DNA of 64,000 bases. It comes from Psammoneis japonica. Lineage: Eukaryota. Every line of letters starts with the position of its first letter. Positions within the stretch are counted from its first letter, which is position 1. The stretch spans positions 124,001-188,000 of the forward strand of contig QPGO01000123.1 of the NCBI GenBank assembly GCA_008632985.1. Reading direction: 5' to 3'. The notes beneath the pieces were generated by a model. That model was not told where the DNA came from and made no database searches. It saw only the letters and a program-made list of their open reading frames with translations. Of the stretch, positions 18,672 through 53,020 are shown one piece after another. Made by a program: the position numbers and the translations under genes.

Positions 18672-18846
18672 GTTCCCCAGAGTGCAACTCCAACTCATCA
18701 AAGGATGGGGTGGTGGCCACAATGTCTCCACCCACACTGGGTGCCAAGGCGCCCACAGAACACACAAACTGGTGTCAAGGGCTAACCGAGTCTAGTGGTT
18801 CAGGGTTTAAACTCTCAAACCCCAAATTGCTAGACTCGAGCTGGTC
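18672..18846 (-). repeat. Split direct repeat B1 (directly abutting A2)
   Basis: Aligns with 18169-18341; differences are mainly TA->CA/TG. Confidence 0.92.
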
Positions 18847-19800: not shown

Positions 19801-19812
19801 ATCACCAACGGG

Positions 19813-21972: not shown

Positions 21973-22193
21973 GTCGGTGCCCCCACATCGTCACAGTTGT
22001 TTCTGTGTCTCTCCAGGGCAACCACCCCTTGACTGATCATGTCTTCGCGTCTCTCACGCGGGTGCCGTTCCACCGCACAGAGTGGGTTCTCCAGTCGCTG
22101 CAGGTGCCAAACCCCGCCCTCAGAGAGATCCGGCGGCGTCCATTTGAATTCACCATGACCCGCATCATCCGACCCATTCTCCGATTCCTGGGG

Positions 22194-23330: not shown

Positions 23331-25948
23331 TTGGGGTGCCTAATGTGATGTACACTGTGCGACGCGAGGAGGAGCGGTGCGGCTTGACAATTGGTTCTTG
23401 GGCCGGATGATCCAGGCCCAGTGTTCGCTCCGACTCCGGAGCCCATTCCATGTTCAGCTTGGAGGTGCGCATCTCGGAGATGAAGGTCTCAAGATCACCG
23501 TCAGGGTCCTCCTCAAGGTGCTTGGTGAGCTCGGCACACGCGGCCTTGACCTTGTCGAGGGTGCAGTTGGTCTTTGTCACCCCCCTCAGAAGCTTTCTGG
23601 CTTGTGATGCCGGGAGATCCTTGGCGGGGCAGTTGGCGCGTCCCTCACCGTGAAGATTGGTTCGGTGACACACGGCGCACCTGCGGGAGGAGCCCGTGGC
23701 CGTGCTGTTGTGGGATCCAGATTGGTTGACCACCGCACAGAGATTCTGCATCTGATCAAACAGGTCGTCACAGATTTCCTCATGGCGGAAGCGGTGTTGA
23801 TGAAACGCTTCACGGAGACAAACATGGCACAACAGGATGTGGGACCGGAAATTGGGTGCAAGCATTCAAGTGAGCCTGAGTCTTTTGGCATGGTGTTTGA
23901 CCATGCTCTCGGCCCACCCGTCCTTGCACTCCACCTCCCCCTCTTCAGAGTGTAGGGATTCCTGGGCCAGAGACAACAGAGCCAGATGGCATTCGCATGT
24001 CTTCTGAAGGACTCGAGGCAGAAGCCCGTGCCGCAAGCAGTCCTCAATGAACCGGGGCGAGCATCGTCGCTCGTAAAGAAAGGCCTGGAACCGGTCATTC
24101 TGAACCGGCCAGAGCTTCTCCCATGCTTTGGAGACTTCCTTCATGATCCGCATGAGGTCTGACCGGTTCTTGATCAATCCCAGAGTGTTTGAACGCTTGG
24201 TCTGCCAGGCACTGTCATGTCCGGTCCGGCTCCGCTCGAGCGCACCCAGATGTTTCAAGAGAGCTGCCACAAGCTCCTCCTTGCTGGGTGTGTTTTCAAA
24301 GAAATCGGCACCACACACACCTGGTGACGCCGTCACATCCACACTCTGATTCAGAAACTCCGCCCAATCTCTCGCATCCAGCCCCGGTGGGCACAGCAGC
24401 TGTTCCACTGCCGTCGCATTCAAAACCGCTTCGCCAAAGATCTTGGTGGCATCTCCAATCAATGGGTTGTTGCCCCAATGTTCCAAATTGAGCCGGCGTG
24501 TCTCCGCAATGCCGTCCTCATCCGTGAGAATGGGAGCGGCGGCCGAGGGTGCGGCAGGCGTGCCCACCGCCGAGCAGGGGGGAGGGCCAGTTGCTCTCAC
24601 CCCTGAAACTCCCGCGGATGGTGCAGGTGCAATCGGTCTGGCCATGGGAGGCACTGGTGACGGAACTCGGGGCACCAGGGGAGGCACTTCCTCCCGCCAC
24701 CGTGTAGCCTCGTCAAGAGTGGCGAAGGTTCGCACATGTCGGAACCCCCGGCTCAAAGCCAGGGCCACATTCGCATCAGAGGTGCAGACATGCTGCTCAT
24801 GTGAACCACGAACGAAGCCATGCCACCGTTCCCCCGGCATTGTGGGTTGACGACGATGCCACTCTTCTGCTTCTCGCTGAGTGGGGAATGTGGCGCGCAA
24901 GATGGCACCCACTCCAAGCCAGCATTCCAAGTCCTCACGAGCATTGCAAATGCGCCGAGTCTCGTCTGGTTCACTCAACCCATGCCAAAGGGGTTCGGGC
25001 CCCGGCAGCGACGGTCGAGATGCCATTGGAGGAGGTGATGGATTGGCAGCAACAGGAGTGGTGCCTGGCCCTGGGAAAGGGATCCTGGGGCCAGCAGCCC
25101 CCTGACCAGAGAGGTCATTCCGAGCTTCAACTGGACGTGTCCCAGTTGAAGTCGAGTGTCCCAGTTGAAGTCGAAACTGTGACAGGGTCCGCTGCCTGTT
25201 GTGACAGATTGTCTGTCTGCGGAGTGACCGGTGACAGCAGGCACTCAGTCGTGATCGGCGGGTCGTGCAATTCAGTCCCGCCGAAGGTCACCTGCCTCTG
25301 TTCTCGGTGGTCTTCTCCCCCTCGGATCTCATTGAGCTCCTGCTGAAGATTCCGGTCCAGATCCGCCATTGCTTGACGGAGCGGAGTGGCGCCGGTGAAT
25401 GACTCATCGTTGGTGGTTGCAACTGATTCTTCGTCCGGCTCTTGATCGTCCAGGAGAGCCTCAGCCACGCGTGACATCTCGTCGTTTTCGGCCGAGACCC
25501 GCGCGTCTCGCTCTTCGCAGGTCAATCCCATCCGGAGCCGGTCCAGTCGGCCGTCAACCACGTCCCTGTGCCGTCCGCTGGCATTGGGGAACCTCTCATA
25601 GAATCGAGGAGGGGCCCGGTGGGCTGTCTCTTGTGACTTCTTATGGTGCCCACGATGGGTACACCCGTCGCGGGTTGCCCCGCATGCGCAGTGAATCGTC
25701 TGCCCACACTCCTTGCGGGTCATGCAGACCCGGCACAGGTTGTCTGGAGTGAGGTCGACCAGGTCAGAGGGGGCCACCAGATCATCTTGGAGAGTCACAC
25801 TTCCCACTGACGAGGTCTCGGAGAGTTGTTTGTCCTTGACAGTGCCGTCATCCGCGTCGTCCGTGTCCAATGTGACGGTTTCAGGCCCAGAGACTAAGAC
25901 ACCGGTCGTGGTGGAAGAGTCCGGTGGACTGCCGTCGATGCGTGTCAT
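23134..25948 (-). pseudogene. gag-like ORF1 with N-terminal Cys cluster, two RNase H1 N-terminal (viroplasmin)-like repeats and a C-terminal zinc knuckle
   Basis: ORFs 25127-25948, 23866-25026 and 23134-23865; WHG..IC/VC..TF.T..EA..W twice; CAVCHRTNLH..CP. Confidence 0.65.
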
Positions 25949-25992
25949 GGCGTTGTAGCCGTCAGGTAGACAGCAGTCCAGTTCCCCCCTGC

Positions 25993-26276
25993 AAAAAGAA
26001 AATTTTTTGCACTGTCTAGCGTGTCAGCTCGTTGGTGCTCCAAATTGTGAGCTGTTGTGAACTGTTGGCGGCGAAGCCAATCTTCGTGTCTTTTTCCAAA
26101 TCCTGGTGTTGAAAATCAACGTGGGGCCACTTGATTGTTCGCATTAGCAGCGTTCCCATTGAGGTCGAGTGCCCGAGATCACTTTTTAATCCAACACCTA
26201 GTCCGGATCTGTCGAAGAACATCCGTTCTCAATTCGTCGTTTGTCCGAGAACCTGTCAATTAGGGCAAGTGATGAG
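25993..26276 (-). repeat. Split direct repeat A1 (5' terminus of element)
   Basis: Aligns with 18389-18671 and retains more TA/CG. Confidence 0.92.
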
Positions 26277-26439: not shown

Positions 26440-27365
26440 AAGCCGAATCGACGAGGAGAAGAGCACTGCGGGGGGTGCCTTGATGACACGTGGTTTCAAT
26501 CGAGACGAAAAAAATGGCAAAGACGAGGAGATTTCTTGCCACACGGACAAAACGACCGTTCGTGCCGGGAACGTGACGGTACGCATGAAATTCTCAAATC
26601 TCTGCTGTCCTACGTTTGTTTTGCAAAGCGTTTCGAAACTAGAAATTTGAAGCACGTTTCGAAATTTTTCAAATGATGATTGTCTTGTTGCCGCTCTTCT
26701 CACCTTTCCTCGCGTTCTGAACGAACCTCATGCTGCAGAGTTCTAGACGACGCATGTCAACTCGTCGCGAAATCGCAGGTAAGGTCACTTTGCCGTGTAC
26801 TTGAACGTAGAGCACCTCCCCCTTTTCGTTTGGACTTTTTCATTCACTCCCTATTCTATTCCTTGCTGTTTTTTCGAAATGCAGCGGATGCTCGGACTGT
26901 CGTCGAGCTCACACTTCGTCCCATCCGCAACACCGACGATCGCAGCATCGTTCTACTCGCTCTCCCAAAGTTCTTTGACATGAAGCAGAGGCGTGCTTTT
27001 GTTGGGATTTATGAGATATTGGCAAACGGAAAGACTGTACCTGAAGAGCTTGGGCGATTCCCCATTGAGCGAAGGGATGAATTGATCCAAGCATTTCGTG
27101 ACACTGTCCATTCTATCAATGCTAGCTTTTGGCCGTAGCATATAGGCGTGCCAAACGTTTCCGCCACGACATTTGCTGCTGTATCGAGATTCATCGTCAT
27201 AGAACATGCCAATTGATCCATGTATATTGTTGTCATACTTGGCAATGCTAGAGGTAATTGGAGAAGTGCTGCAACTTGCCAAGGTGTAGCCACACAAAAT
27301 TTGGTTTGTAATCATTGGGTCCAATTCATCTGCCCGTGAGTAACTAGGTCGGTACAGGATCAAAA
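26440..27365. repeat. Segmental duplication copy 1 (copy 2 is 33490-33583 plus 39419-40300, split by the Copia element)
   Basis: Shared blocks gacgaggagaagagcactg..gccttgatgac, gggaacgtgacggtacgcatgaaattctcaaatctct and gaattgatccaagcatttcgtga. Confidence 0.88.
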
Positions 27366-29768
27366 TGTTATTAGTTTTCTCTACCGTCTTTACTGGATGA
27401 TATCATGGAATTCATCGAATCCAAATTAGCGTGAGGCATCGTCTGACTGGCAAGGTTGTTGTTGATTCAGAGAAAGAAGAAAGACACATCCATGACCAAA
27501 ATTTTTTGGGTGCCAAACGTGTCTTGTACTTGGAGACGGCTGACAACACTGTCCTGACTTGATCAAAATCAGAAGCGGTCAGCAAAGCGAGATTAACCTG
27601 TGTCCCTTTATCTTCCATGGCATTCTTGCTCACCACCAGAGAACAAACACAAGCTTCATGGCCTCCTTCTGCAGCAAATGTCAAAGCCGTCACGCCACAA
27701 AATGTGGAGTGATTTGGATTTGCACCACATTTGAGAAGAGTGTCCAAACATGAAAGCCATCCAGAATCAGATGCAGTCATTGACAGCTCTTGTTTTGACC
27801 TGCCCAGGTGACAAACACAGAGCAGAACAAAGTTGAGATCTCTCTTCCTCGTTGGATGTCACATTCCCCAGAGTCCCCAGACTGCATGCCAGCACACTCT
27901 CTTACATCATTTCGCTGATGCCTCACAAATCTCTGACATCCAGGTGAATGACCAAATTGAATTTCATCCACCATGGATCTAAATTTTGTTTGGCCCAACA
28001 CCAGCAAATAAATCTGCACAATGCAGATTTGCCACTCCCAGTGGGGCCATCAAGCAATGCAGACTCAGCTGAAGTCATCTTTTAAAAATTGGTCAACACA
28101 ACGCCAAGCTGCTGGCCCATGTCCTTGTTCTTGTTGCCTGTGGTGTGTGATGCCACCACTTGCTTGTTCACACAATTCAATGCAATCACCTGTTTGGTCC
28201 ATTCTGCTGCCAGCACCTTTGACCATGAACAAATCAACCGCACAGGTGAGGAACGTCTGTCACAGCTTCTCTGGCAACTCATTTTGCATGCTTGACATTG
28301 ATCAGTGATGTGACCCATGATCATTGTCTTGACACCCAAGATGTCCTCAAGTGGCTGCAATGCCACAATGAACTGCTCCAAGTTTTGTGCAAGCCAAGCA
28401 CACCACCTGATGAAGTGGAGAGATTTTGTTCAAGAAGCTGTTGCACTTTGCCCTGGCCCTCCTCCAAATTTTGCAGAGCCTCCTTCATTTCTCTTTGGCC
28501 TGTTTTGAGATCTTCTGGAGGCCTTCTGCCAGCTTTGACAACTTTTTGTCCAGTTCAGTGATTCATCCCTCCAAACCTGAGAAATCAAAAACCATTTTCA
28601 TTGTGTTTGCAGCGATCCTTTCAAGAAGCATCCTGTCACTTGTTGCACACAGTTTCTCCAGTTCCTTTGCATGGCTGTCAGCTCACTTTCCACAACTGTC
28701 TCACATTCTTGAGCACAGGGGGGCCTCATTGCTTGCACTGAGTTCTGTCCACATCCTTGAATGCAGTCAGCACAATTGGCATCTGAGGCTGCAAAAAGTC
28801 TGATCATCTTGGAGTCACCACCATCGGAGCTGTTCTGATCACCTTGAATGGCATCAACACATTTGAGCTTTTCAACTTCATGTGCTTGATGAGCCCAACT
28901 TCATCAAGATGGGGCATGATCCCACTCAGTCACTTGATCTGGCCTGCAATCTTTTTGACAATTGAAGTGTCCTGGCTGATCACTTGAAGTGCTGGCATGA
29001 GTGCCGCAAAGGCAACTCCAACAAATGGCGCACAGCTGAGCACCCCAGCCACTTCTTTCAATGTTTTGTTCATGGAAGTGACTGTCTCCCCATCAATTGC
29101 AAATGTTGTCACCAAGAAGCTGTCGTCAAAGCCTTTCAGCATACAACCAGTCAACCCAAGTTCATTGAGTGCAGTTGAAAGCTGGCTGAACACTTCATGT
29201 TTGTCACCTGCATTTTGTCTCACTTGTTCAGCACTGCTTTTTGCCTCTCTCACCTTGGTGGACAATTTGGCAAAGTCACAAATTGCCAATGTGCAACCAT
29301 CGATTGTTGTTGAGTTGGCTGCCACGGTGTTTGGTTTGTTTTCTCTTTCTGTCTGTTGCCCATTCTCTTGTAGAAAGACAACACCTTCAAAGCTGGGAAC
29401 ACTTTCAATTTTGCTTTTCCCTGGCACAGTGCGAACAGTTTCCAGCATGCAAGAGTTCCTGCCACCGACGGGTGTCGACTCAACATGCAACTCCGATCCA
29501 AGGGCGACACGAATGGAGGCGCGCAAGAGAATGCACTTGCTGCCACTGCTCAAAGCTTGTTTCACCTTTGTCATTTTTTCATCATCTGACAAAGCAAGAC
29601 ACTTGCTGTCGTCAGCCACAAACACATGCTCTTTGGGAAAACTGGGGCAGCTCGAGTTGTCAACACGACTTCGAAGATCCTCAGAACTTTAATTTCCTTC
29701 TTCAGATCATCGATCAACTCTTCCCAGTTGGCCCCAAACAGTTTTGCTTTCACTCCATGAGGAGCCAT
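26953..29768 (-). pseudogene. Hypermutated host-type gene: helical N-terminal region, ankyrin repeats, C-terminal domain
   Basis: LLKCGANPN..GVTALTFAAEGGHEACV ankyrin consensus (27412-27780); long coding-like frames at 28930-29768; TA-free from ~27450 to 29900. Confidence 0.6.
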
Positions 29769-30227
29769 GGGAATGATGTTGAAGCTGCTTTCACAGCACG
29801 CACCCCACGTCAAACAGATTCTGTCTCGCCTGTCCAAGATCCAAGCGATCGATCTTCAATCTCAACTCATCAAAAATCACATTAAGCACAAGAAGTGGAA
29901 GCATTTAATGCTGGCTAGCAGCAGCCATCATGCAGCATCTATTTTAGGTATGAACACCCCCTCACTCGAGCGAGCGAGGAGAATGAATTCAGAATCATCT
30001 CAGTGGCAGTGGCGATCTGTCTGTACGATGGTTTCTACGTACGCATGTTTTGTACTGTCCTCCGTCCGTGCCACCTCCAGCCCGATTCCCGTACCAATTA
30101 CAGACCTCCCAAGCCGGGAGTGCCCGATTCAAGACACGATTCAGAAATTCAGACGAGTAGCGACGAGCGACGACACGACACGACACACGACACAACACAC
30201 AACACATAAAATAAAATTGTACATACA

Positions 30228-32102: not shown

Positions 32103-32279
32103 TCTGTAGTCGCAGCCACTTTTGAGAGCAACAAATGATATTTTAGAATAAAATGAAGAGTGCATCTAGACTAGAAACCCCGTTGATTTCTTTTATTGAC
32201 CGGATGTAGTGGGCAATTTTATGCGCGACTTAGTGTGAACGCAGATTATTTGAAGATAAGGTTACAAGTTCTGTCTCCC

Positions 32280-33578
32280 ATGAGAAGTTGGTTGCTGCTT
32301 TCAGGCAATGGATTCAAGATGCAGAAGTGACCAGGGTGCACCAAGCCATGTTTCTTCCCAACAAGCACTGAAACACCTTTGAACCAGCCAAACCCTCTGG
32401 TGTCAGTTGCGCCCTTTGCCCCTGGTCACCACAATCCTTGGCTCCACCCACAGATTTCTTCAAAAAGAATTTTCCACTTGATCCCTTTGAGCTGGTGGTG
32501 CCATGGCCCTTTTGTGTGCTCATGTCAATGCTGACATCATTCACCTCATGGGGTGTTGCTCTCAGTGAAATGCTCCATTGCCTTCGTGTCCAAGCTGGTC
32601 ATGTCATGCAAAATTGTTGTCCCAAATGCTCTCCAGGGGCAGGCTTGAAAGTGCAAGGCTGGGAGAATTTTAAAACAAATTGGGGAGTCTCCCAGACAAA
32701 AAAGGCCGGGGCCCAGGTTTGGGGGAGTGCTGCAGCACTGGCCTCTCTGCTCTCCTCCCAAACAACAAAAAATGCCCTGCAAGACTCTTTCCTCTCTCAA
32801 TGTGCTCTCCCCAGTGTCACTGGCCCACCTTTTGTCTTCCACAAAGTTGTCCAGGAGCTGGTGCTTGGCTGGCTCCTGGTGGGTGGTCTGGAGCTTGAGC
32901 TCTGAAAATGGACCTCGTCTGTGCCAACAGGTGTTTGGAGCTGGTGCCTCCTGCGTGTGCTGTTTGAAATGACAGCACCAGCCACCACAGAATGGGGAAG
33001 ATGATGCAAGGGCTGTTGATCAGCTCAAGTTTGTTCCCACCATGGACAGAGGTCTCAAGCCTGTCTGCACCAGAGACCACTCAACACAACCAAGGCTTGC
33101 GGCCATTCTTTGTCATTGTTGCAACAAGAACAACGTTGTGAACAGAAGAAGAGTTTTCTTGAAGGATCCTCCCGCTTGCCCCAGGAGCTGGCAAGAATGC
33201 TCAGCTGGCTCCCAGTGAGCAGTCTGGAGCTCAAGCTCTGCAACTGCCACCAACTGTTTGGAGCTGGAGTCAGCTGTGCTGTTCCTTGAAGTGGCGGTGG
33301 CCGCAATCTCTCCTCCCACGCTGTTGGGGCACATCAGTGCTGCCGTAGTTGTGGATTGAGTGCACGGACTGTTGCGATGATTTTGCCACATTGCGTGCAT
33401 GCATGCATGCCGGCAGGGCCCCACATCAACCCAACCATCAACCCCATGACATGACAAGCACAACAACAGAAGCAGTGCCTGCCACTGGCAGAAGCAGCAG
33501 AATTGACGAGGAGAAGAGCACTGTGGGAGGCGCCTTGATGACGCATGGTTTCAATCATGACGAAAATGACAACGATGA
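32280..33578. other. TpA/CpG-depleted relic adjoining the Copia 3' LTR
   Basis: TA nearly absent; includes the mutated left part of the segmental duplication. Confidence 0.75.
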
Positions 33579-33583
33579 GCTTT

Positions 33584-33985
33584 TGTGGGCACACGGCAGT
33601 TTACGCCGCAGAGATGGAAATGGTGGCAACAGACAACTTAGGAGGTGTGAATTGACCAGTCGCTAAATTGTGAGAACAAAAACTGCTCCACTCGACAACC
33701 AACAAGAATTTGTAAAGAACGAGAAGTGACCCACATTTGCGCTGAACTCAATGCAGATGAACACAGTGAAAAGACTTGGCAGGAATGAGAAGTTCTTGAT
33801 TGCACAAAAGAAAAGAAGAAGCGGGGCTCAATTCTTGATTTGAACCCAAGACCTCCGATCTCATTCGTTTCTCGAGCTGTGATTGGGTGAGTCGTTGATG
33901 GTGGTTGATGGCGGTTTCTGAGCGGTCATTGTCACACGCAGGACTTGATGGCACACTGATGCTTGAACATGTGTGTGTTCTCACA
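33584..33985 (-). repeat. 3' LTR (402 bp, heavily TpA-mutated)
   Basis: Aligns end to end with 39009-39413. Confidence 0.95.
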
Positions 33986-33992
33986 CTCCCTC
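33986..33992 (-). other. Polypurine tract GAGGGAG
   Basis: Immediately precedes the 3' LTR on the minus strand. Confidence 0.75.
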
Positions 33993-34012
33993 ACACCGAA
34001 ATGTCCAAGTTG

Positions 34013-37000
34013 TTGCCATCCCTGAAGCAAAAGACGATGGCGAGTGAATGTCGACAGGTCCGGCATTTTTGTCAGGAAGTCAGCCTGTTGGAGTTTGGTT
34101 CCAATGGCTTCTTCAATGAGCCTGGCAGAGAGGGCTGGAAGCTCCCTGGTGGTCACCACTTTCTTTGGTGTTCCATCCTCATTGACAAGTCCCAGATCAA
34201 CAAGAATGCTGTTGATGAGGTGAGGTTGGGCCAAGTGACATCGATCCTTCTCCCTCTGAATCTTGACTCCAAGGCATTCGTCAATGGTTCCTTCGTCCTC
34301 CACATCGAATGTGGTTTGCATCAACTTGATGACCTTGTCAATTTTTGCCGCAGACTCTTTGTCAAAGACAAGACAATCATCTGTGTAGACCAGGAGGACT
34401 GTGGTTCCTCTGTGGAAGACGCATTCATCGAACTCCGATGGAACAAAACCGAGTTGCAACAAACCGGCATGGAGATGTTTGCACCAGGTTCGTCCACTGT
34501 CATGTCTGCCGCAGATGTTCTTCTCAATGCAGAGACAAAATTTGTTGCGATCAATGCCAGGAAATGTCACTCCCTCAGGTGGCTCCATGAAGGTCGGTCG
34601 TGGAATGTCCACTTGTGGATGCGCAAGGACGAAATCAACTTGTCTTGAATGCCATCCATGCATGACACACAGATGCAGAAACAGACGGATCGTTGTCCAG
34701 GACAAAGCTGGTGCATGAGTCTGGTCACAGTGCTTTCCGGGAATCTGCTTGTGCCCTCCAAGATCAAGTCGACTCTTCCACTTGTAGACTTCTCGTGTGT
34801 GAATTCGGCGCTTGCGCTTCATTGACCACACTGCTGGCAGGATCGTCTCACGTCGGGTGCATCGGATTTCTCGCATGGTTCCCAGTGATCACGAGCAGTG
34901 TGGTCTTGAATTTCCTTCACCATGGCCTCTTTGAACTGCTCTGCATCTGGCTGCTTCATCGCTTTGTGCATGCACATGGTGTCAGGATCAGCAGAGGCCT
35001 TCAAGGAGCAAGCAACAGGATCGTCAAGATCTGCTTGAAAATCTTGCTCTGAGTGCATGTCTTGGTCCAGTGCTTCGAAGTCGGCTCAACATGAGACAAC
35101 ATTGGCCTGCCGTTGCAGTTCCGACTCGATCATGCATTGTGTTGGCTGAACAGTGCATCCAGACCGTGTTGTTTGCACTGCTGGTGGAGGCTCTGGTTCG
35201 GGCACTTCGGATTCCGGCAGTGATTCTGGGGTCTCAGAGGCTCCCTCATTTGTTGCATTTGGCGCATCTTCTTCGTCTTCCACCAGTTCATCCGGTGCGG
35301 TCGCCTCCACAGGTGTTTTGGGGGTTGGCACCATGGTGTGCATTTGACGTGGTTCACGTGGTCTTGATGCGTGCCGCTGTTCCGGTCTTCTTGGTGATTC
35401 ATGGTTGAAGTTTTGAGTCTTGGAGAAAGTGGCAGATCTGCTGCCAGCGGGACTCAGTCGCACGTTGGGATTTGAGCGTTTCGATGATCATCAAATCTCA
35501 CGTGATGTTGTGGTGAGACCATCCCCGTGGCGAGATTTAGAACCAGAGCAACTGAACGAGAGTGTCTTGGTGATGGTCCAAGGTGTGGACCAACTCGAGA
35601 GCGAGGGTCCCACTTGGGCACAGCGTTGTTGGCTTGCAATTTGCTGTTTAAAATGTAGACTGGGCAGGCGAATGGATGAAAGTGCCAAATTTTGGGTTTC
35701 ACTGGTGCTTTTGAGAAAAGTTCAATCGGCAACACTTGCTGACCAGTTCTTGGCACACAGTTGCGCACAGCATTCGCGTGTCGAATGGCGCAGGGCCACA
35801 GAGCCACCTCTGCTGCTGCTGGCCATCGATGTTTAGCATGCATGAGTTGTGTGCAGGCTGAATCTTGGAGGTCGGGGATTCTTTTCTCGCAAATGCCGTT
35901 TTGAAAGTGTGCATTGACTCCACAGAAGGACATTGTTTGGTTTGCATCCTTCACTGCCTCAAGGCATGCATTGTCCGCGAAACGGCCATTGTCGGCATGA
36001 CAGTGACGAATGTGAACTCCGAGGGATCGGGAGCATGCTTCAAACGCGAGTTTCGCTGCCACTGTCTCAGCTCCAGTCAATGTTGTTTGTAAATAGACAA
36101 AAGAGAAGTCACTGCAGTGGTCAACGAATGCAGGGCGTGTCTGCAGCGTTTTGTTGTTGCCCAGCCTTTCAATTGGACCATTGGACCTGGTGTTGTCGCG
36201 TCGAGTTGGTCCACCGACACGCACTGACCAGGCTCAGCAGCTTTGAATGTTTTGTTTTGTTTGTTGTCCCCTTTGACTTTCCAAGGTACTTTTGTCGCTT
36301 TTCCGAATCGACAGGCAGCACATTGAGGGACATGGCATGTTGATGGACGACGAGGCAGGTCTCCACTGCAAGCCACAGCTTGCATGCGCGAAAATGGGAG
36401 ATGACCGAGTCGACAGTGCCAAAGCAGCAGTTCGTGGGATGGATTCGCAGGCGTGATGATCTCTTCATTTTCGATGAATCGTTCACCCTCTGAACCGTCC
36501 TCTGACAGGTTGAATTCGACTGCATAGGGTCAGACGGAGGTGTTGATTGATCCGCATGGATGGCTTCCTCGTTCGGGCTAGTTGCATCATCGGGCACTTC
36601 GTCAACCGGAACATGAGTCGGAACAGCAGGTTGCTTGGCATGATCCGAGACCCCGTCGGGCGGAGGAGCATGATTGTGAGCAACAGCAGCGTCGGGTGTG
36701 TCGTCGTCAGGCGGAATGAGGTGTGCTTGGAATGCACAAAAAATTTTGTCACGACGACAGTCGCATGTTTCACATGGCGCCTGAAGGGACGTAAAAGAAG
36801 GGGCGGAGCGAAAGACACCGACATTGCTTTTGTTGAGGGGGACCGACTGCGTGCATTTTTGGTCCATCCACTCTAAAATGATGCGGTTGCTTGTGGTTGT
36901 AGCACGAGTCCCTTCTTGGGTGCGCTCTTGTGGCTTGAGAGCTTGAGCCAGGTGTTGCGGAGACAGGAGCCGAATCGGGAGGTCGGGCACACAGCAGATG

Positions 37001-38919
37001 CCGGGTGCATTCAAGTCATGTGTTCATCCGAGGTCGTCTTGGATGGGCCAACACACAGTGCCTTTGCATGAGGTTGACACATTGCCGGATGCACCCTTGA
37101 CGTTGACATTGACCTTTGTTGGTGTCTGGATGAAGTCTGACATCAAGTTGGTTAGACAGCAGGAGGCGTGGTCATCGATGCCAACAAGGAATGAGTTGGC
37201 ATTGCAGCCATGGTCGTTGCAGGTTGAGCGCCGTTCCGCATCGGTGGTGGAGGAGCATCCGACAACCAGTTCATGGGTCACGTGGACCTCGATGACCTTG
37301 TGCATGACCGCGCACCATGTTTGCATCAGACACATCGTCGGCGGCAAGCAGAGCCTTGCTTGCACCGACTCTGGGGTCTTCGGACTCTGGGCTTGGGTTT
37401 GAGGTTGAGGTGGAAGGGCTTGGCTGAGTCAGACAAGGAGTGCAATGGATCACATGCACTGCTGATCACATTGGCTGCGATGGGAACTGCTTTCATCAGA
37501 ATGGTGTCCACAATGATTTCATCAGTGCAAGCCAAGATCGCGAATGGTGCAACAAGTGGTGTGGTGCAGATCATCTCCAAACCTGACCGCCACTTTCATT
37601 TGCCTTGGGCCTGTCCAGTCATGTCGTTGACACCGACATTCGCCATGGAAGCGGTGAGAGCATCGGACGTCGGCTGGTTTGGGTTGCCGGTGTTCCGGTT
37701 GTCCGCTTTCTGCTTGGCACGACAGCCCTTGCTCAAGTGCTGTCCCCAGCACTTGTGGAAGTCGCAATGCTTCCATTCTTCTCCTTCAAAGGTCTTCACT
37801 TTGGGTTCTCCGGGCTGAGGTTCGACGCTGCGCCAAGTCCATTTTCCTTCAAATTTTGGTTTTTCACCTTTCTTGCATTTGGTGGCGTTTGAGGACTTCT
37901 TGGCCTGGCTGGCGTTGGAAGGTTTCTGGCCCAATGACCGCTGGGGTGATCTGCGCAAGCGTTGGTTCCAGAGGTCGTTCACTTTGGCACGAAGAGTGAC
38001 AATTTGTGCTTGTTCCTCGGTTGGTTCGTTCCACTTTTCATTGAGGACGAGGGCTTGACATTTCTTCTCAGCGCGAATCATGAGTTGCTCATGGGCAATG
38101 TTGACTCCATCATCATAGTCGTCGTTGATTTTCTCCATGCACTTTGTGAAGTTCTTGTCTGCGCATGCTGCATGTCCCTTGAACAGGTTCGTGATGAGAT
38201 CGTTGGATGTCTCTCCTCAGCTTGACAGGGATTTAATCCTGTCCCTCACGTGCTCGTTGAATGCCTTGACATCGTGGTTGGCTGTGTTGACCATGTGCTT
38301 GTCCAAGGATGCGAGCTCGGAACGGACATGGGAGGCTGCAGCGCGAGTGTCAATCTCGGCCTTCGAGAGCAGAATTTTGAGGTGCAATGCCCCGCAATCT
38401 GTGTCTCCGACGCGATGCTGCTTGGATTCGTTGGCCATGACTTGCTTGGCAGCTTCATCCACCAGAGTTGTGAAGGCACAGGTGCAGCTGATGGTTGTTC
38501 TGGGTTTCACGATTCTGCCCGTTTATGTGGGCAGCGGACACCGTGTGGATCTGTTCCGGTGTGATGTTTCCGCAGGATGTGAGCATGTTCCGGTTTTCAG
38601 CAGTGGTGCCAGCTGCTCCCTCATTGATGTTGATCGTTAGGATGTCGTTCCAACCAAAAGCTTTGGACCTTGTACGAAGTTCATTGAGCAATGCGCGGAT
38701 GTCAGGCTTCTGGGTGTTGAACGTGGTCGGCAGAGGTTCAGCAGATGTCTTGAATGCGTCGGCATCGCCTCGGCGACTGTGGTCAAGCAGTGCATCATGG
38801 GCTAAGGCTGGTGAGCGAGCAAAGTTGCCTGCTGGAGGGTTGTTCTGGGCATCGATAAGAGGTTGGATGGCGGCCGGAATGGCTGCAGCAATCGCGGCTG
38901 CGATCTGTTCGGCGTTCAT
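34013..38919 (-). pseudogene. Copia gag-pol remnant with frameshifts, Tyr->His/Cys changes and an RT/RNase H deletion
   Basis: PR GIDDHASCC; IN VSVDQL, HCHADNGRF, QNGICEKRI; RT VDFVLAHPQ, KNICG, LVYTDD, ECLGV; ends QQADFLTK..LQGW. Confidence 0.9.
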
Positions 38920-38992
38920 GATGTCGTCGTTTCGGCGTCCACGACGTTGGGCTCTGGTTTCTGCAACAATTTTGAACTAAGTCAGGTCTCTA

Positions 38993-39008
38993 TAGCGCAG
39001 AGGAAGCA
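38993..39008 (-). other. Putative primer-binding site complementary to the D-arm of initiator tRNA-Met
   Basis: Plus strand reads TAGCGCAGAGGAAGCA directly beside the 5' LTR, resembling the conserved eukaryotic tRNA-iMet TRGCGCAGCGGAAGCG. Confidence 0.6.
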
Positions 39009-39413
39009 TGTGGGTATACGGTGGTTTATGCCGTAGAGATAGAAATGGCAACAACAGACAACTTCTTGGGAGGTGCGAACTGACCAGTCGCCAAATTGTG
39101 AGAACAAAAACTGCTCTGCTCGACAACCAACAAGAATTTGTAAAGATCGAGAAGTGACCCATGTTTGTACCAAACTCAATACAGATGAACGCAGTGAAAA
39201 GACTTAGCAGGAACGAGAAGTTCTTGATTGCATAAAAGAAAAGAAGAAGCGGGGCTCAATTCTTGATTTGAACCCAAGACCTCCGATCTCATTCGTTTCT
39301 CGAGCTGTGATTGGGTGAGTCGTTGATGGTGGTTGATGGCGGTTTCTGAGCGGTCATTGTCACACGTAGGACTTGATGGTATACTGATACATGAATATAT
39401 GTATATTCTCACA
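39009..39413 (-). repeat. 5' LTR (405 bp, TpA largely retained)
   Basis: Aligns with 33584-33985. Confidence 0.95.
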
Positions 39414-39418
39414 GCTTT

Positions 39419-42519: not shown

Positions 42520-43053
42520 ATGAAGTTCTCCCTTACCTCCCTCCTCCCCATTGCGGCTCTCGCCTTCGCCAAGACTGCCGCTGCTACTCAGAGCATCCAT
42601 GAGTACACGACCTTTGACATCATCGGAGCGTCCGGTATCATGGCCTCCGAGGAGGTTTCCTACTTCGAAGCCATGCTTGTGGACACGTACAACCTCGTCC
42701 ACTCGCACGAAGAGGGTACTCAGACGGAAGCGACCTCCTTCACCGTCGAGACTCAGCAGGAGCCTACCAACCGTGCTCTCCGTGGTGAAACGACCGACGA
42801 ATCGGCTCACCGTATGCTTCCCGGAAGGAACTGGGGCGGCGGAGTCTATGGAGGCAACTGCTTCCTCTGCTATGGAGGCCGCAAGCTCGCTGATGGAGAG
42901 CAACGCGAGCTTGAAGATGCCATCCCAGGCGACAGTACCGAGCTTCACCGCCGATTCGAGTTGACTTTGGCCGCTGTTCTTCGTGAGGGACCCTTCAGCT
43001 ACTTCCACGATGTCTCGGACGTTGTCGTCGACTTTGGTGCCACCCAGAACTAG
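42520..43053 (+). CDS. Secreted protein with multiple RxL processing-like motifs flanking a conserved Gly/Cys peptide
   Basis: Signal peptide; RAL, RML, RKL and REL motifs; strongly biased codon usage; inverted paralog ~1 kb upstream. Confidence 0.85.
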   Translation: MKFSLTSLLPIAALAFAKTAAATQSIHEYTTFDIIGASGIMASEEVSYFEAMLVDTYNLVHSHEEGTQTEATSFTVETQQEPTNRALRGETTDESAHRMLPGRNWGGGVYGGNCFLCYGGRKLADGEQRELEDAIPGDSTELHRRFELTLAAVLREGPFSYFHDVSDVVVDFGATQN

Positions 43054-43759
43054 GTTCTCTTTGGTGAAACCGTTTCATTCCTCAAGCTACTTATTCATCT
43101 GGATGTGGTTCTGTTTTCGGTTTCTTGGGACTCCCGGGTCGCGAGAGACCATGTTTCTGTGTTGGGACTAGTGGTGTTTGCAATCATGATGCTTTGCTTT
43201 CGTCAGCCATTGAAGCAGCTTTAGAGTAAACCTGAGAGGGATAACTACTAGATTTGTTATCCTTACGGTCATATCTGATCCCCAGCCTATATATCAATTG
43301 CTGTTGCGTTCTTTGTTAACCTATAAGCGCCGCTTCTGTTGCGTTCTTCGAGCTCATCGTGAAACCCCACACCTCCCTCCGACACGGAAGGAGAGGGTAC
43401 CGGTACCGTAGAGCAGAGCATGGGCGCCGCGTCTGCGAGCTGACGCGTTGCTGGCCACACGATTGTTCATATTAATTTTTTCGCATTCTGTCATTTTTTT
43501 TAAGTAAAACTACGTCATCACAAGCGACCAAAAGCGCTGCGGCTAACGGACAGAGCGATCTTCTTCCCACTTGCTCTGCTCTATGCTGGAGCAGCTGCTC
43601 TCTCTCTCTACTCTAGCCAGAGAGAGAGAGAGAGAGAGAGAGAGCTGGCTGGCTGGCTGGCAGAGACTCTCTGCTCTCCAGCAGAGGACCATCACACTGC
43701 CAGCAGTGGAGGGAGCAAACTGCACAATTTGCTGGAAAAAAGAGACAAAGGCCACAACA

Positions 43760-44190
43760 TTGTTGTCGACTTTGGTGCCACACACAACTGGGTTCTCTTG
43801 GGTGAAACCGTTTCATTCCTCAAGCTGCTTGTTCATCTGGATGTGGTTCTGTTTTTGGTTTCTTGGGACCCTTGAGTTGTGAGGGACAATGTTTCTGTGT
43901 TGGGACTGGTGGTGTTTTTGCACCAATGGTGCACACACTGCTTGCGCCAGCCACTGAAGCAGCTGTTTGGAGCAAACCTGAGTGGGACAACTGCCATTTG
44001 TTGTTCATGCAGTCATGTCAGATCATGTCAGTTGCTGTTGCATTCTTTGTCAACCTGTTGGTGCAGATTCTGTTGCGCTCTGTTCAACCTCATCATGAAC
44101 CCCCCCCCCCCCCGATGCCACAAGCGCATGGCGGTGGCAGTCCACGAGCTGACGACTCTGCTGGTCACACGAGCAGTTCAGACCAATTTT
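43760..44190 (+). repeat. Hypermutated duplicate of the 3' end and UTR of the 42520-43053 gene (source 43022-43480)
   Basis: Colinear alignment; stop TAG->TGG and all alignable TA converted. Confidence 0.9.
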
Positions 44191-45721
44191 GTTGCACTTT
44201 GTCATGATCAACTGAGTTGGAGTGACATCAATCAACCGTGCATGATGGAGCACAATTGTGCGTCGTCTTGTGCAAATAAATTCGGGCTTGCATTGAACTC
44301 CCAAGGTGGTGCCGTGAGCTCCAAAGCATGGAAAAAAGAGTGACAACAGCACACAGCAGCAGTGCATGCTGCAGCAGGAGCAGCTGGTGCCAGCCAAAGG
44401 TGCAAAATGGCAGCCTGAGACTTTGTGAAATGAGACAAACCCACCATGTGTGCACACACAGCTGACAAACAAGTGTGTTCTGAGTGTGGTCAGTTTTGCA
44501 GGAAACCCATCAAAAGAAAATGGTGGCCTGCTTCTTGCATTTTTTGCACCATGGACAACAAGGAGCACACCAGGCATGGCTTGCAGGGATGGTGACTTGT
44601 TCTCTGTGGGCAAAGTTCATGTGTGCTTTTGACACCTTTGTTGTGGGCCAACAAAGCACTTCTTGGCTCTCCTGCCTTCTTGTTTGCACCATGGCTGACT
44701 GCCCGCCCTCACACACATGCCCCTTTTTGCACAAAAACACAAATGTTTTGTGTTTTCTTCAACATTGCTGCTTTCGTTTTGTCAGCAGAGTGATCACATT
44801 GATGGTTCACAAGCAAAACAGACTGATGAAATTCTCAGCAACCAACAGCCAAAATGGCCATGGCTTCCAACAGCCACGACAGCCTGCTTTTTTCAACCTT
44901 TTGGAAAATTGAACTGAGCAATGAGGATTGCTTGCTGTGTCACGAAATGAAAACAATGAAAATGCTTGTGTCATGGGCTGCAGTGCAGCACAAGAAGACA
45001 AATCTGGCAGCAACAACAATTGGGCCTCATTTCACTCACCATTTGCCCCTGTCACAGAGCAAATTTACACACAAGAAGATTGACCACATTTTTGTGTGCA
45101 TGTGTGCAGCATCACAAATCACTCATTGGAAAACCAAGCTCTCATTTTGTGGCACAGTCAAGTGATCAATGACTTTGTCCATCCTCAGTTTCAAATGCAT
45201 GGGCACACACATGAGACCTTTTTGCATGCACCCACAACACATTTGAGTGTTGTTGTGTTTGACCATTTGAAATTGTGCCAAAAGTTTGGATGGCATGTTT
45301 CATGCAAAAAGGGGCATTTTTTCGTGCTTGTGCACACCTGAGTCTGGAGTGAGTCTGCAACCCCTCTGCATTTCATGCTGTCCAGTTTTTCAACACTGGC
45401 AGCTCATTTCACATCAAAAAACTTGTTCAAAACCTGGTTTGAGTGGGGAAACTGCCCTCTCCATTTGGCCACATCAACTGCAGCTGCTGCAAAGTGCAGT
45501 GAGAGCTTTCCAAAAAATTTTGCTGGAGAGAGAGAGAGAGAGTTTGAAACAAAGCAGTGGAATTTTTGACAAATGCCATGAGGTGGAGTGTCAATGGGAA
45601 TCATTCGAAAATGTCGCAAGAGTCACAATTGGCATTTCACATGAGGAAAAATGCCAAATCGTGCGGAAATGTACACAATGTCATGCAAGAGGGTGATTGG
45701 GGCCACTGACTTTTCGGGAAC

Positions 45722-45804
45722 TCAATTGAAATGTTGTCTGACCAAGGGTGTTTTGATTTAGATGGTGAAGAGCAACACCCTTGGTCAGACAACATTTCAA
45801 TTGA
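45722..45804. repeat. Perfect inverted repeat, 31-bp arms, 21-nt loop
   Basis: tcaattgaaatgttgtctgaccaagggtgtt / aacacccttggtcagacaacatttcaattga. Confidence 0.92.
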
Positions 45805-46721
45805 TTTCCCCCGAGGAGTTGACATTCGAGTGCGGATGGGTGTGCAGACTGACAACAAACATTTCTGGTGCTCTTCTACACAATTTCTACGCAATGACTC
45901 TGAGAGCCGAATGATTCCTGTTGCTGCCACAATCACCATGGTTGGCGCTGCAGCTGGAAGCCAGAAGAGTTGTTGCAGCTGCTCAAGCACGGCGACTGCA
46001 GCTGTCATGATGTCTTTGAGGGCCATTGTCATCATTCAAGACAGTGGAAGGTTCAGGGTGGTGGAGTCAAACAAAAAATCTGGTCTGGGGCCAGGCGAGA
46101 CAGACATTTCTGGGGGTGGGCTCGAGACGTGCACGAAGCGCCAAGAAAGCCTGCACTCATTTCAGCTGCAGCTTTGCACAAAAATTTGCATTTTGACCTG
46201 ATTTTGCCCCTCTCACATGCAGAACCCTTGCTTGTCAAGTTGGCAAGATGACAACATCATGTGATGTGCAGAACTCTGTGAGTGTCCCGAAGAGTGTGAC
46301 ACTTGTCAGAGCGTGGCCACATGCATGTTGCCCACACCCCTCTGTGTGTCTGTGTGCTTTCACATTTTTTGAAAATGAATGTCTCACTTGTTGGGGTTGT
46401 TGCTGATTTGTTTCAGGGATGGCAGCAGCATTCAGCATGTCCCCTCTCTAGCAGAGAGAGTGCAGCATTCACCAGAATCTACACAATGCTTCGATGCGAA
46501 GAAACCCGGAAAACAGAAGCACGATTCAGTGACGTCAGATCGTGATGAGGACCCTCTCTCTTCCGCCACGCACAATAAAAACACGCAACACCGCAACACC
46601 GTCATCCCTCATTCCCTCATCCTTTCAGGCATCACACGAGAAGCGACGGAAATGGCGGCGTGTGCTCTACAGAGTGTGTCAACGACAAGGTTAACGGTCA
46701 GTCTCTTCTTTTCTTTTTAAC

Positions 46722-47901: not shown

Positions 47902-48288
47902 CTACACGATCTGAGTTCCGGTGTATTGATGCCGGGCGTCAGTTTCGGAAGTTGCATATTCCGGTGTGAATCTCATTACATAGTCCCACGTCAATCCTCC
48001 GCAACCAATACCCATGACAAGGCCCGCCCAGTACCCAAGATTCACATGAGCTGCTTCATTCTCCGACCAACATGGACCATCATCAGGATACAAAGACCAA
48101 TGGTGCCGCGAGCAAAGAATGGTTAATGGTAAGTAGAGTAATAGAAACCCACCGAGAAAAATCACGCCAAAAATCAAACGGAGTAGCTTTCTGTGCTCCT
48201 CCGGCAGCAGCCTCCGTGTCGTCAGTGAAGCACAGCAGCCAATGGGCGCCCCAACTGGGCAAGCCATTGTGCAACAACACATTCCCAT
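47902..48288 (-). CDS. Small hypothetical membrane protein (two TM segments)
   Basis: 128-aa ORF with two hydrophobic helices, normal Tyr content, CpG-rich upstream region. Confidence 0.5.
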   Translation of the reverse strand: MGMCCCTMACPVGAPIGCCASLTTRRLLPEEHRKLLRLIFGVIFLGGFLLLYLPLTILCSRHHWSLYPDDGPCWSENEAAHVNLGYWAGLVMGIGCGGLTWDYVMRFTPEYATSETDARHQYTGTQIV

Positions 48289-48429
48289 GGTGATCTCACG
48301 TTTCTCAAAAGCAGAATTTGTTTCATGTGCACCCCTATGAGAATGCGAAGCGCTGAAGTTCAGTCGTGATTTGAAGTCGCGCTTGGTCGCGCAAACTCAA
48401 AACAAGCAAAGCGCGCGAAGCTAAATTCA

Positions 48430-50110
48430 TTGTGTGAGAGACAACAGATCAAAGAGAGCAATGATGTGTTTCACACCAACACTTACTTGAAGCGTTGCTG
48501 TGCGCGTGACAAGCCGAACTGGGAAAGTTCATCCATTTCGCAACACATGAACAAAACCTCCTCAGTTGATGCAAACACAAAGCGAAACTGCAAAAACTGC
48601 TGTGAGGTGACAGCAACAACACCTCAGATTTTTCTTTCTTCTTCCACCCGACAGGGCTCCAATGGAATCCATCGATCAAATCTCCTTTGTGCCATGACCA
48701 GGATTGTTGCAGGACCTGTCAGCAGCAACCTCATTGCTGTTCTCAGATGCAGCAAATGTGGCTCTTTTGATGAGACAGGCCCACCTGGCAATTTCATGCA
48801 TCGAGGCTGTCTTCGTGTCTTCTTCGCCAACCTGTGCCTGCACCCTGCTTTCGCAAATGTTTCCATCAAGCTTCCAGTGCCAACAAACAACACTGTCCTT
48901 AACTTTGGACTTGCATCAGAAGCTCCCAAGTGTCAGATCTGAAAAGAGATGACAGTGGTGTGGCGCGAGACATCCTTCGCTTTCTTTGTTGCACAAGCTC
49001 GCAACGATGCATCGCACCTGGTTGTCAAAAAAAAATGGCATCACCAGCATTGAGCAGAGCTGCCACTGGCACTGCAAAGCCAGACAAAGATGCTGCAAAA
49101 AGCAAAAACTGCTCTGCAATGACAACAGATTTCCAAAAACAAGCCAAAACATCAACTTTGCAACTGCAGCTGAAAGGAGAAGGGGGTGTGAGATGAGCAA
49201 ATCAGCTTTTGCAAACCAAGAAACTTTGCAAACACATGCCAGCCATGAAAGCAAGTGCTTTGGCAAAGAAAGCCCATCTGTTGCAAAAAAGCGCACCCCC
49301 CATTGAGCCCACTCTGTCAGCCAGCTGTGAAGTGGTGGTGTTTGTTGCTCAAAACTCTTCTTGTGGCTGTGCCAGCACATCTTGCGTGGGCAAATTCTCA
49401 GAAAGTTTGGCAGCTTTGTCTCACACTCATGAGGAAAAAAGTCACAGTGTTTGTCTCAGAGACAGTGGTCCAAAACACTTGAGTTTGGGCCATTGGTCAC
49501 TGATGGATTTTTTGACTCACCGGTTGAAACAAAAATTTCTGCCACCTTGCACGTGTGGTGGTCAGAGCAAGATTTCCAGAGACAGAGGACTTTCTGCAAG
49601 GTGTGCCTGACATGATTGGCTCCTCATCGACTGTGATTCCCTTGGGGGCTGAGCATTGGCCAGAGCTCAAGTGAGAGGTGTGCCGTCTTTTCAATCATGC
49701 ACAGTTTGTTGGTGGCCTGCTGTGATGGAGTCATGTGGGCATGGCATGCAAGAAAGTTTGCTTTGTGTGGTGCTCAAGTCACCCCATTTGCTGACATGTC
49801 TTTGCAACAATGACACAAATGCACCATCTTCTTCTTGATGGATGATTCTCCATGAAAAAGACTGCACTCAGAACAAACCTCAATGACATTGACTCTGTGC
49901 AAGGCAGTTCCAACACTCATTGGCATTGGTTGTCTCTTTTGTTTCAATGGAGTTCTCGGTGTCTTAGAAGGCTGGAAGAAACAGAGTGCTTGTGTTTGCA
50001 ATGGCCAATGCCACGGCAATTTGGATTGCAATGCATCAAAGATTTTTGGGGCAACACAGCACAGCAACATCTTAAAGTTGACACAGCAAACCGTTTGTGA
50101 CTTAGTTCGA
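48430..50110. other. TpA/CpG-depleted hypermutated relic
   Basis: TA nearly absent over ~1.7 kb. Confidence 0.8.
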
Positions 50111-51807: not shown

Positions 51808-52079
51808 TGTTGATTTAGCTCTCTCGTGAAGAGTGCGAGACGAAACCCGATTCGTGAGTTTCGTCATGGTGAATGGTGAGACCTTCGAGCTTCGAGCAGT
51901 AATCGCAAAAAATGGCGATAAAAGTTTCGGTCATAAAATAGATATTCAAGGTTATATGAATTTTGCGAACTCCAAGATGATATAATATTCATATATAAAT
52001 ATATATTATTACATAATGTCAGACACAACATTGGCAAATATGCATTACCGTAAAAAAATCTGTCGTCGACATGCAGCAA

Positions 52080-52800
<721 letters not shown>

Positions 52801-53020
52801 GCAAAAAGGGCGCCCAACTGGCGGCAACCGAAATTTGAAGTTCCACGCGCGAAGAATCATCAAAATCGGCGCGACGGTGCCGCCGACGATTTGGATATGA
52901 CTGCATGAGAGACTGACTGACTCGTCGGCATTAAGCGACGCACTTGATTGTGACTATCTTGCGTTGTATGAAAACACCTTATGAAGATCGTGTCACAATG
53001 GCATTACAGCAGTAACAGTC

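Follow-up and report, generated by a model that had tools for sequence, protein, structure and literature searches.

About half of a 64-kb stretch of the Psammoneis japonica genome (64,000 nucleotides of contig QPGO01000123.1, positions 124,001 to 188,000; hereafter the window) lies in sharply bounded domains that have lost most of their TpA dinucleotides, and a Ty1/copia retrotransposon at 33584..39413 allows us to follow this loss. The edge of one such domain lies between the two long terminal repeats (LTRs) of the element, and it is for this reason that the LTR pair records the process. TpA is converted to TpG or CpA, so that A:T pairs become G:C; the change is specific to TpA, hits both strands, is restricted to sharp-edged domains irrespective of repeat homology, and is about 100-fold faster than neutral change in the same LTR. 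We regard it as very likely that what we describe is a hypermutation that erases TpA in situ in silenced, transposon-rich domains.

The copia element is a defective copy of 5830 bp on the minus strand. Its LTRs, at 33584..33985 (402 bp) and 39009..39413 (405 bp), both start with TG and end with CA, and a 5-bp direct match, GCTTT, flanks the element at 33579..33583 and 39414..39418. The identical pentanucleotide on both sides indicates a single insertion event and not a recombinant of two elements. The state before insertion can be seen in a paralogue at 26441..27335, in which 26441-26511 matches 33496-33566 and 26529-27335 matches 39413-40239; since the left-flank match is joined straight to the right-flank match, around a single copy resembling the GCTTT duplication, this paralogue shows the empty site. 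The coding frames lie on the minus strand and include an RVT_2 reverse transcriptase (RT; E 4.8e-28) and an integrase-associated SH3_retrovirus domain, which makes the LTR at 33584 the 3' LTR and the LTR at 39009 the 5' LTR. Alignment by tblastn of 48 full-length homologous polyproteins gives the gene order gag-integrase-RT with the RNase H part deleted (a gap of ~211 residues at its expected position) and several frameshifts, from which we conclude that the element is dead. Several features are those of Ty1/copia: the direct LTRs with TG..CA ends, the target-site duplication of 5 bp, the RVT_2 RT and an integrase ahead of it. The best homologues are ~62% identical, and the seven that carry an organism name all come from diatoms (Nitzschia, Fragilaria, Attheya, Aulacoseira). 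No further copies of the element were found within the window. A stretch of ~1.7 kb between the 5' LTR and the first polyprotein match (~37250-39008, element positions ~406-2160) is without counterpart in the 48 homologues and may be a lineage-specific gag or leader, or captured sequence. Neither ARAGORN nor Rfam returned a match for a tRNA-like piece suspected in the LTR.

The two LTRs are 90.1% identical, and their differences are far from ordinary. The 3' LTR, within the depleted domain, is TA-poor (4 TA, rho(TpA) 0.14), and the 5' LTR, just outside it and beside a gene, is TA-normal (18 TA, rho(TpA) 0.55). They are separated by 37 substitutions, 35 of them transitions and 2 transversions, and by one 3-bp indel. 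At 18 sites one copy has TA where the other has TG, CA or CG; written as 3' LTR|5' LTR, these are CA|TA (8), TG|TA (7), TA|TG (1), TA|CA (1) and CG|TA (1), so that at 16 of the 18 TA is lost from the 3' LTR and kept in the 5' LTR. The other differences are four sites of CG against TG or CA, five reciprocal TG/CA sites and four remaining substitutions. This recount reproduces exactly the tally of the first-pass annotation of this DNA (18 TA sites, 4 CG sites, 5 reciprocal sites and ~4 others) and agrees with its placing of 16 of the 18 losses in the 3' LTR, which the minus-strand frames identify as such. Thirty-three of the 35 transitions fall in pyrimidine-purine (YpR) steps, which make up 196 of the 402 aligned columns (binomial P 3.7e-8). 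Two control pairs of paralogues, with both copies in TA-normal DNA, have transition/transversion counts of 78/73 and 65/57 and symmetric TA/TG/CA differences; the LTR pattern is therefore unlike normal divergence in this genome. One pair that served as a control is an inverted repeat of ~600 bp and 75.8% identity at 41002-41594 and 42441-43053, in TA-normal DNA.

The LTR pair on its own is fitted equally well by a model with C>T changes only and by one with A>G changes only. Two sequences give no direction, and the earlier use of this pair alone to show one does not hold up. To obtain a direction, we turned to homologues from other organisms, which served as the outgroup. In the copia element, 263 codons are conserved in at least 80% of the 48 homologues, and the element departs from the conserved codon at 32 of them. 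Its A>G or T>C changes at these codons number 15, all of them in TpA; its C>T or G>A changes number 6, and CpG accounts for 5. The consequence is most visible at tyrosine: at 18 majority-Tyr codons the element encodes Cys 10 times, His 4 times, Tyr 3 times and Phe once. The element keeps the conserved residue at 7/7 Cys, 18/19 His, 13/14 Trp and 15/16 Gln codons (Fisher P 3.8e-9), and the aligned in-frame stops are TGA in 10 of 10 cases, never TAA or TAG. One of the three surviving tyrosines stands in a Y-T-D-D motif of the minus-strand translation, within 33932-34876 (-), which we take to be the RT motif.

A second LTR element at 18389..26276, also on the minus strand and unrelated to copia (RVT_1-type RT, homologues of ~1050-1110 aa), gives the same answer against a separate set of 48 homologues of its own. 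Codons with a Tyr majority have become His 5 times, Cys 2 times and Trp 2 times and remain Tyr 3 times; at conserved codons, TpA holds 7 of 7 A>G or T>C changes, and CpG holds 6 of 7 C>T or G>A changes. Pooling the two elements, the A>G and T>C changes are in TpA without exception (22/22), although this dinucleotide holds 14.5% of the A/T bases in normal window DNA (P 3e-19), and of the 13 C>T or G>A changes 11 affect CpG. With the CpG changes set aside, 22 A>G or T>C changes face 2 non-CpG C>T or G>A changes (AGA, GGG) and 10 transversions. The totals given for both elements are 12 Tyr>Cys and 9 Tyr>His; no His>Tyr, Cys>Tyr, Gln>stop or Trp>stop change is seen among the conserved codons of the two. 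It follows that TA is ancestral and TG and CA are derived. The occurrence of both outcomes (Cys 10 and His 4 in copia, Cys 2 and His 5 in the second element) further shows that both strands are mutated, and these same counts give no consistent strand bias relative to transcription. The first-pass annotation had suggested a process that acts on both strands and destroys TpA, the reverse of repeat-induced point mutation (RIP), and had named ancestral TG/CA as one outcome that would overturn it; polarisation came out the opposite way, with Tyr replaced by Cys or His at 14 of 18 or, in the metagenomic comparison below, 16 of 19 positions.

For this comparison we took the best 80 of 223 metagenomic relatives (related RTs), themselves drawn from 328 pattern matches. 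The fraction of Tyr replaced by Cys or His is at most 0.17 among these 80, as against 0.84 (16/19) in the window copia, so that the copia result is no artefact of alignment. The Tyr content of 120 homologous proteins is likewise normal, at 2.3-5.1%.

The loss of TpA is confined to discrete domains, which we called from a dinucleotide profile and a two-state segmentation of the window. Eleven depleted blocks amount to 31,957 bp, with rho(TpA) 0.08, rho(CpG) 0.56, rho(CpA+TpG) 1.60 and GC 0.52; the corresponding values in the remaining 32,042 bp are 0.55, 0.98, 1.18 and 0.47. The copia domain, at 32264..38977, covers the 3' LTR, the internal region and 1.3 kb of the left flank, and ends just before the 5' LTR, which adjoins a gene. 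It contains 28 TA in 6714 bp (rho(TpA) 0.07, rho(CpG) 0.64, rho(CpA+TpG) 1.56); its left edge (32263/32264) is razor sharp, and its right edge is graded over ~450 bp. The domain over the second element, at 18312..25894, has rho(TpA) 0.13, rho(CpG) 0.68 and GC 0.586, and includes the LTR at 18389..18671 (2 TA) and leaves out the gene-proximal LTR at 25993..26276 (5 TA). At the sharp edges TA occurs every 5-20 bp as far as 32263 and 18311, and then is absent for hundreds of bases. The longest TA-free run in the window is 1077 bp, and a run of 1000 bp at normal TA density would have a probability of 1e-17. Pfam domains of host type (kinase, synaptobrevin, saccharopine dehydrogenase, DUF1499, PhyH, CUE) were found only in open reading frames (ORFs) that lie in normal segments, and LTR retrotransposons occupy two of the eleven domains.

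Duplicates that straddle a domain edge provide a direct comparison of the two environments. The depleted member at 43757..44113 has 0 TA and 4 CG, and its undepleted partner outside the domain, at 43019..43377, has 18 TA and 16 CG; between them we count 11 TA>TG, 3 TA>CA and 11 CG>TG/CA changes, and none in the reverse direction. A second pair consists of 18671..18846, with 4 TA, and 18168..18341, with 14 TA and mostly outside the domain: 11 TA losses are in the depleted copy against 1 in the other, with 16 transitions and 2 transversions. In all, four pairs cross an edge, and in all four the inside copy alone is depleted (transition/transversion counts 35/2, 14/2, 16/2 and 39/19). The left flank of the copia element bears on the same point. 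In Logan contigs of the public run X1 (word depth ~52 in unique parts; X1 and X2 are runs of one sample), the depleted segment 32264-33017 sits on one contig together with the neighbouring gene, and at the 31-mer level it is found in one contig. Because only the inside copy of each duplicate is hit, and because a single-contig flank is hit as well, the process tracks position and not repeat homology. Of the earlier proposal that repeats or heterochromatin are targeted, the part that stands is thus the kilobase-scale, sharp-edged domain; targeting by repeat homology does not.

The LTR pair also provides an estimate of rate. In its non-YpR columns 3 of 206 differ, or 0.0073 per site per lineage, which we take as the neutral value. 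Of an estimated 20-25 ancestral TA steps, the depleted LTR has 4 left, corresponding to ~0.8-0.9 events per base, 110-126 times the neutral value. Expressed per step, TpA loss amounts to ~1.6-1.8 events and is several-fold above CpG loss, for which 3 of ~17 steps are affected. The sequence context is not neutral either. The four pairs yield 43 TA>TG/CA events of known direction, in which the base 3' of the mutated A is T in 16, G in 15, C in 10 and A in 2 (P 0.004), and at steps with TAA on one strand only it is the other strand's A that has changed in 12 of 12 cases (P 0.0005). Consistently, the TA remaining in the domains is enriched in TTAA, CTAA and TTAG, and ATAT, GTAT and ATAC are nearly gone. 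Since 4 of the 22 codon-polarised events have a 3' A, this avoidance is a preference and not a rule. Compared with the two large retrotransposon domains, which hold more CpG (rho 0.64-0.68), the small blocks are lower in both dinucleotides (rho(CpG) 0.26-0.38, rho(TpA) 0.02-0.04), so TpA loss seems to be saturated before CpG loss.

A precedent for this signature exists in the chlorarachniophyte Bigelowiella natans. As reported in the main text of a preprint by Mettrop et al., 231 of 302 nuclear mutations in a mutation accumulation experiment fell in two integrated, silent viral regions; in 230 of these 231 the change was A>G or T>C, invariably at TpA, and the rate was ~6e-7 per site per generation (bioRxiv 10.64898/2026.01.13.699255). 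The same text describes a footprint in which clustered 1-kb windows (124 clusters in ~95 Mb) are depleted of TpA and enriched in CpA+TpG, reports that TpA-depleted coding sequences are enriched for reverse transcriptase and DDE domains, and proposes, as a hypothesis, an ADAT2/TadA-like DNA adenine deaminase, noting that ADAR prefers U before the edited A (10.64898/2026.01.13.699255). As far as that account goes, the likeness is close: in both cases the changes are nearly exclusively A:T>G:C, at TpA only, with TpG and CpA products according to strand, and they are found in discrete regions of foreign DNA where TpA is low and CpA+TpG high. The two also differ. The insertions in B. natans are of giant viruses and virophages, and the targets here are LTR retrotransposons and kilobase-scale blocks between genes; depletion here is near saturation (rho 0.02-0.13, against 0.45 in the nucleocytoplasmic large DNA virus region of B. 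natans); and depleted DNA makes up half of the 64-kb window here, as opposed to 124 clusters in ~95 Mb. Furthermore, we see a decay of CpG and a 3'-neighbour preference, and the main text of the preprint makes no mention of CpG (0 occurrences), of diatoms or of a wider sequence context (10.64898/2026.01.13.699255). Our case also comes from a different, diatom-type lineage. We read the process in the window as the same kind as the TpA hypermutation of B. natans, with CpG decay added. The first-pass annotation was aware of no description of such a system in diatoms; we too found no diatom report of TpA hypermutation in the literature searched, from which subscription journals were largely missing, and the signature itself is no longer new, given the B. 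natans precedent (10.64898/2026.01.13.699255).

On this basis we propose that, in silent transposon-rich chromatin domains, TpA would be converted in situ to TpG or CpA by an A:T>G:C change on either strand of this palindromic step, and that this conversion would be superimposed on the ordinary decay of CpG to TpG or CpA. Together the two processes would shift the domains towards a composition without TA, poor in CpG, rich in CpA/TpG and higher in GC. The copia 3' LTR and internal region, lying inside such a domain, would have lost ~80% of their TpA in this way, and the gene-adjoining 5' LTR would have stayed nearly normal. As to the chemistry, the leading idea is that a deaminase is recruited to silenced chromatin and turns adenine there into hypoxanthine, a base that would be read as G; we offer this tentatively, with oxidation of thymine as the main alternative. 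It is worth noting that A34, the natural target of ADAT/TadA enzymes, comes after U33. The CpG depletion of the domains is compatible with methylation, and we infer that methylation, or some other mark, might act as the guide. The effect would be to disable foreign DNA through the loss of Tyr codons and of AT-rich motifs. Taken as a whole, domains together with chemistry and effect, this is the best explanation that we have, and we think it a probable one. A bolder extension, which we put forward as speculation and hold to be rather doubtful, is a chromatin-guided enzyme common to distant lineages of the stramenopile-alveolate-Rhizaria (SAR) group, with a diatom-type stramenopile here and the chlorarachniophyte of the preprint as its two cases. 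Its substrate would be adenine at 5'-T-A-(not A) in integrated double-stranded DNA, and together with cytosine methylation it would form a homology-independent, RIP-like defence.

Among the alternatives, the one that survives best, though we find it unlikely, is that the thymine of TpA in silenced DNA is oxidised by a TET/JBP-type enzyme to 5-hydroxymethyluracil or 5-formyluracil, which then mispairs with G, the outcome being T>C on either strand. Between A and T the sequence data do not discriminate, as sparing of TAA is equally sparing of TTA. In dinoflagellates 5-hydroxymethyluracil occurs preferentially at TpA and TpC, and 5-formyluracil does mispair with G. Such mispairing is, however, inefficient, and the depletion to be explained reaches rho 0.02-0.13 and is faster than CpG decay. 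Nothing in the window data bears on a modification of thymine, and the sole experimental report, that on B. natans, proposes deamination in its main text, as a hypothesis.

Less likely still is hypermutation at birth, in which a deaminase edits the reverse-transcription intermediates of an element, in the manner of APOBEC3 but on A, and the domain edges are insertion edges. This idea would account for depleted blocks that are largely the bodies of transposable elements and for the sparing of the 5' LTR in both elements. It also fits the family copies in X1, which differ by 474 transitions against 67 transversions and carry many adjacent TG/CA doublets, as expected of copy-by-copy editing. Edits of single-stranded cDNA should nonetheless mark one strand, and the TA losses in the LTR are divided between TA>CA (8) and TA>TG (7), as are the Tyr replacements between Cys and His (10/4 in copia, 2/5 in the second element). 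In addition, both LTRs are copied from one template, which makes an asymmetry of 16 to 2 hard to produce; the depletion extends 1.3 kb past the target-site duplication into the flank; and in B. natans, according to the main text of the preprint, the mutations arise de novo in integrated DNA. APOBEC3-like or ADAR-like editing at the cDNA or RNA stage was rejected on the similar numbers of hits on the two strands and on the 16 to 2 division of the TA losses between the LTRs.

An assembly or base-calling artefact, in which a modified base at TpA (and 5-methylcytosine at CpG) is misread as TG or CA, was raised as a possibility in the first-pass annotation and is very improbable. Both dinucleotides are plausible sites of modification, and the platforms of the assembly and of X1 are off record. 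An X1 contig of 2901 letters nevertheless covers 30122-33017 and crosses from normal into TA-free DNA; it departs from the window at 3 letters, of which a single one falls within the depleted part. The copia region is present in X1 at ~8-14x unique depth. Misreading would have to affect ~100% of sites across 32 kb and 0% alongside, and a complete, sharply bounded misreading of every TA is very unlikely. Moreover, at one and the same site some family copies have TG and others CA, as fixed sequence would, and the preprint's main text gives Illumina NovaSeq as the platform on which the same signature was obtained in B. natans (10.64898/2026.01.13.699255). Finally, classical RIP-like or 5-methylcytosine-type C>T mutation, with CA/TG ancestral and the TA-rich LTR the mutated one, is equally parsimonious on the LTR pair alone and would be the sole repeat-directed hypermutation with a long record, but it is ruled out by the polarised codon spectrum, in which Tyr codons have changed and those for conserved His, Cys, Gln and Trp remain intact, in-frame TAA and TAG are absent and C>T changes are essentially at CpG (11/13), the large blocks moreover being TA-free and not TA-rich.

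Several points weigh against the in situ hypermutation that we favour. No recognisable domains of transposable elements were detected with Pfam in the depleted blocks other than those of the two LTR elements, and to regard the smaller blocks as transposon relics is accordingly an assumption. The link between domains and silencing is drawn solely from CpG depletion and position. X1 is perhaps the source of the assembly and its platform is off record, so its support is not independent. The five reciprocal TG/CA sites of the LTR pair can be derived from ancestral TA or from ancestral CG, and some of the LTR signal may hence be CpG decay. An altered A and an altered T in the pair with it are indistinguishable by sequence, 'A in TAA spared' being the equivalent of 'T in TTA spared'. 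Lastly, whole-locus rho(TpA) is 0.32-1.01 (median 0.61) in the best 80 of the 223 metagenomic relatives, with no comparable depletion; that no second case of TpA depletion was found among these loci is to be read with the bias of the sample, which favours intact over depleted copies, as one of the two search patterns contains Tyr and only the best 80 were kept.

The proposed hypermutation can be compared with better-known systems. With fungal RIP it shares dinucleotide-specific transitions on both strands, direction against transposons, a strong compositional footprint and inactivated elements. In contrast to RIP, which makes C>T changes mostly at CpA and thereby creates TpA and stop codons, TpA is destroyed here and no stops are made; and where RIP is triggered by duplication and mutates both copies, only the copy within the domain is hit here. 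The decay of methylated CpG by deamination affects the same domains (rho(CpG) 0.26-0.74) and feeds the same pool of CpA and TpG. It cannot, however, remove TpA, the loss of which is several-fold faster here than that of CpG. Editing by ADAR/ADAT and by APOBEC3/AID has in common with our proposal an enzymatic deamination of bases directed against repeats and viruses. Unlike these enzymes, which act on RNA or on single-stranded cDNA and on one strand, the process here concerns both strands of integrated DNA, in LTRs that diverged after insertion.

Published evidence for hypermutation directed at TpA consists of one 2026 preprint on one chlorarachniophyte, and the window would be a second case, in a different lineage. 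With the signature at saturation over about half of 64 kb, the process is perhaps widespread among SAR algae and able to shape genome composition. LTR pairs and edge-straddling duplicates serve as natural before-and-after controls, which give the direction, the ~100-fold rate, the action on both strands and the 3'-neighbour preference, and the co-occurring CpG decay points to methylated chromatin as a possible guide. If adenine deamination is the correct chemistry, the enzyme would be a natural A-to-G editor of DNA, and of interest more widely for that reason. Such an enzyme, if shared across SAR lineages, would remove every TpA from silenced DNA, and Tyr codons, TATA-like motifs and TAA/TAG stops along with it, and would be a major and overlooked shaper of algal genome composition. 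There is also a practical side: TA-free blocks would mark silenced foreign DNA and yield long spurious ORFs.

The nine depleted domains other than those over the two elements are as follows. The first, at 1..414, is cut by the window start and has rho(TpA) 0.06. Next come 3739..4518 (rho(TpA) 0.02, rho(CpG) 0.28), 5179..6062 (0.06 and 0.74) and 8756..10204, with 4 TA in 1449 bp, rho(CpG) 0.26 and rho(CpA+TpG) 1.76. Between the two elements lies 27610..29882 (rho(TpA) 0.04, rho(CpG) 0.27), and to the right of copia lie 43615..46667 (0.04 and 0.32), 48185..50072 (0.04 and 0.38) and 52052..52895, which has 0 TA in 844 bp. The last domain, 57925..63999, reaches the window end with rho(TpA) 0.11.

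Two long ORFs, 57088-60012 (+) of 975 aa and 60016-61794 (+) of 593 aa, lie inside a TA-free domain. Neither has a Pfam or Atlas match (Atlas scores for 57088-60012 are all below 0.8). As TAA and TAG cannot occur in TA-free DNA, long ORFs in several frames are expected from composition, and may be called as spurious genes. The ORF 14360-16039 gave no usable match in the Atlas search, and the 613-aa ORF 6894-8732 no protein match at E 1e-40; the saccharopine-dehydrogenase-like ORF of 630 aa has one protein match, at 41% identity. The genes of the window are long uninterrupted ORFs; those of B. natans are intron-rich.

The two retrotransposons have the same orientation and stand directly upstream of paralogous gene segments (26529-27335 and 39413-40239, 75% identical over ~800 bp), and in both the gene-proximal 5' LTR is spared from TA depletion. 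The elements could prefer to insert at that promoter region, or the active gene could protect the LTR. The 174-bp segment found on either side of the left LTR of the second element (18168-18341 and 18671-18846) is not an ordinary target-site duplication and points to nesting or rearrangement.

The public runs give two further observations. An X1 contig of depth 45.6 joins 33566 to 39412 via 16 other letters, one base off the sequence of the empty site at 26511-26526; it is a further paralogue or an insertion-free allele. Run X2, listed as 'DNA?', is without cover over 32406-39222, a gap that we did not use as evidence. A plus-strand gene starts just right of the copia 5' LTR, and X2 shows a 109-bp skip with GT..AG ends at 39654-39762; from this skip X2 looks like a transcript assembly and may be RNA.

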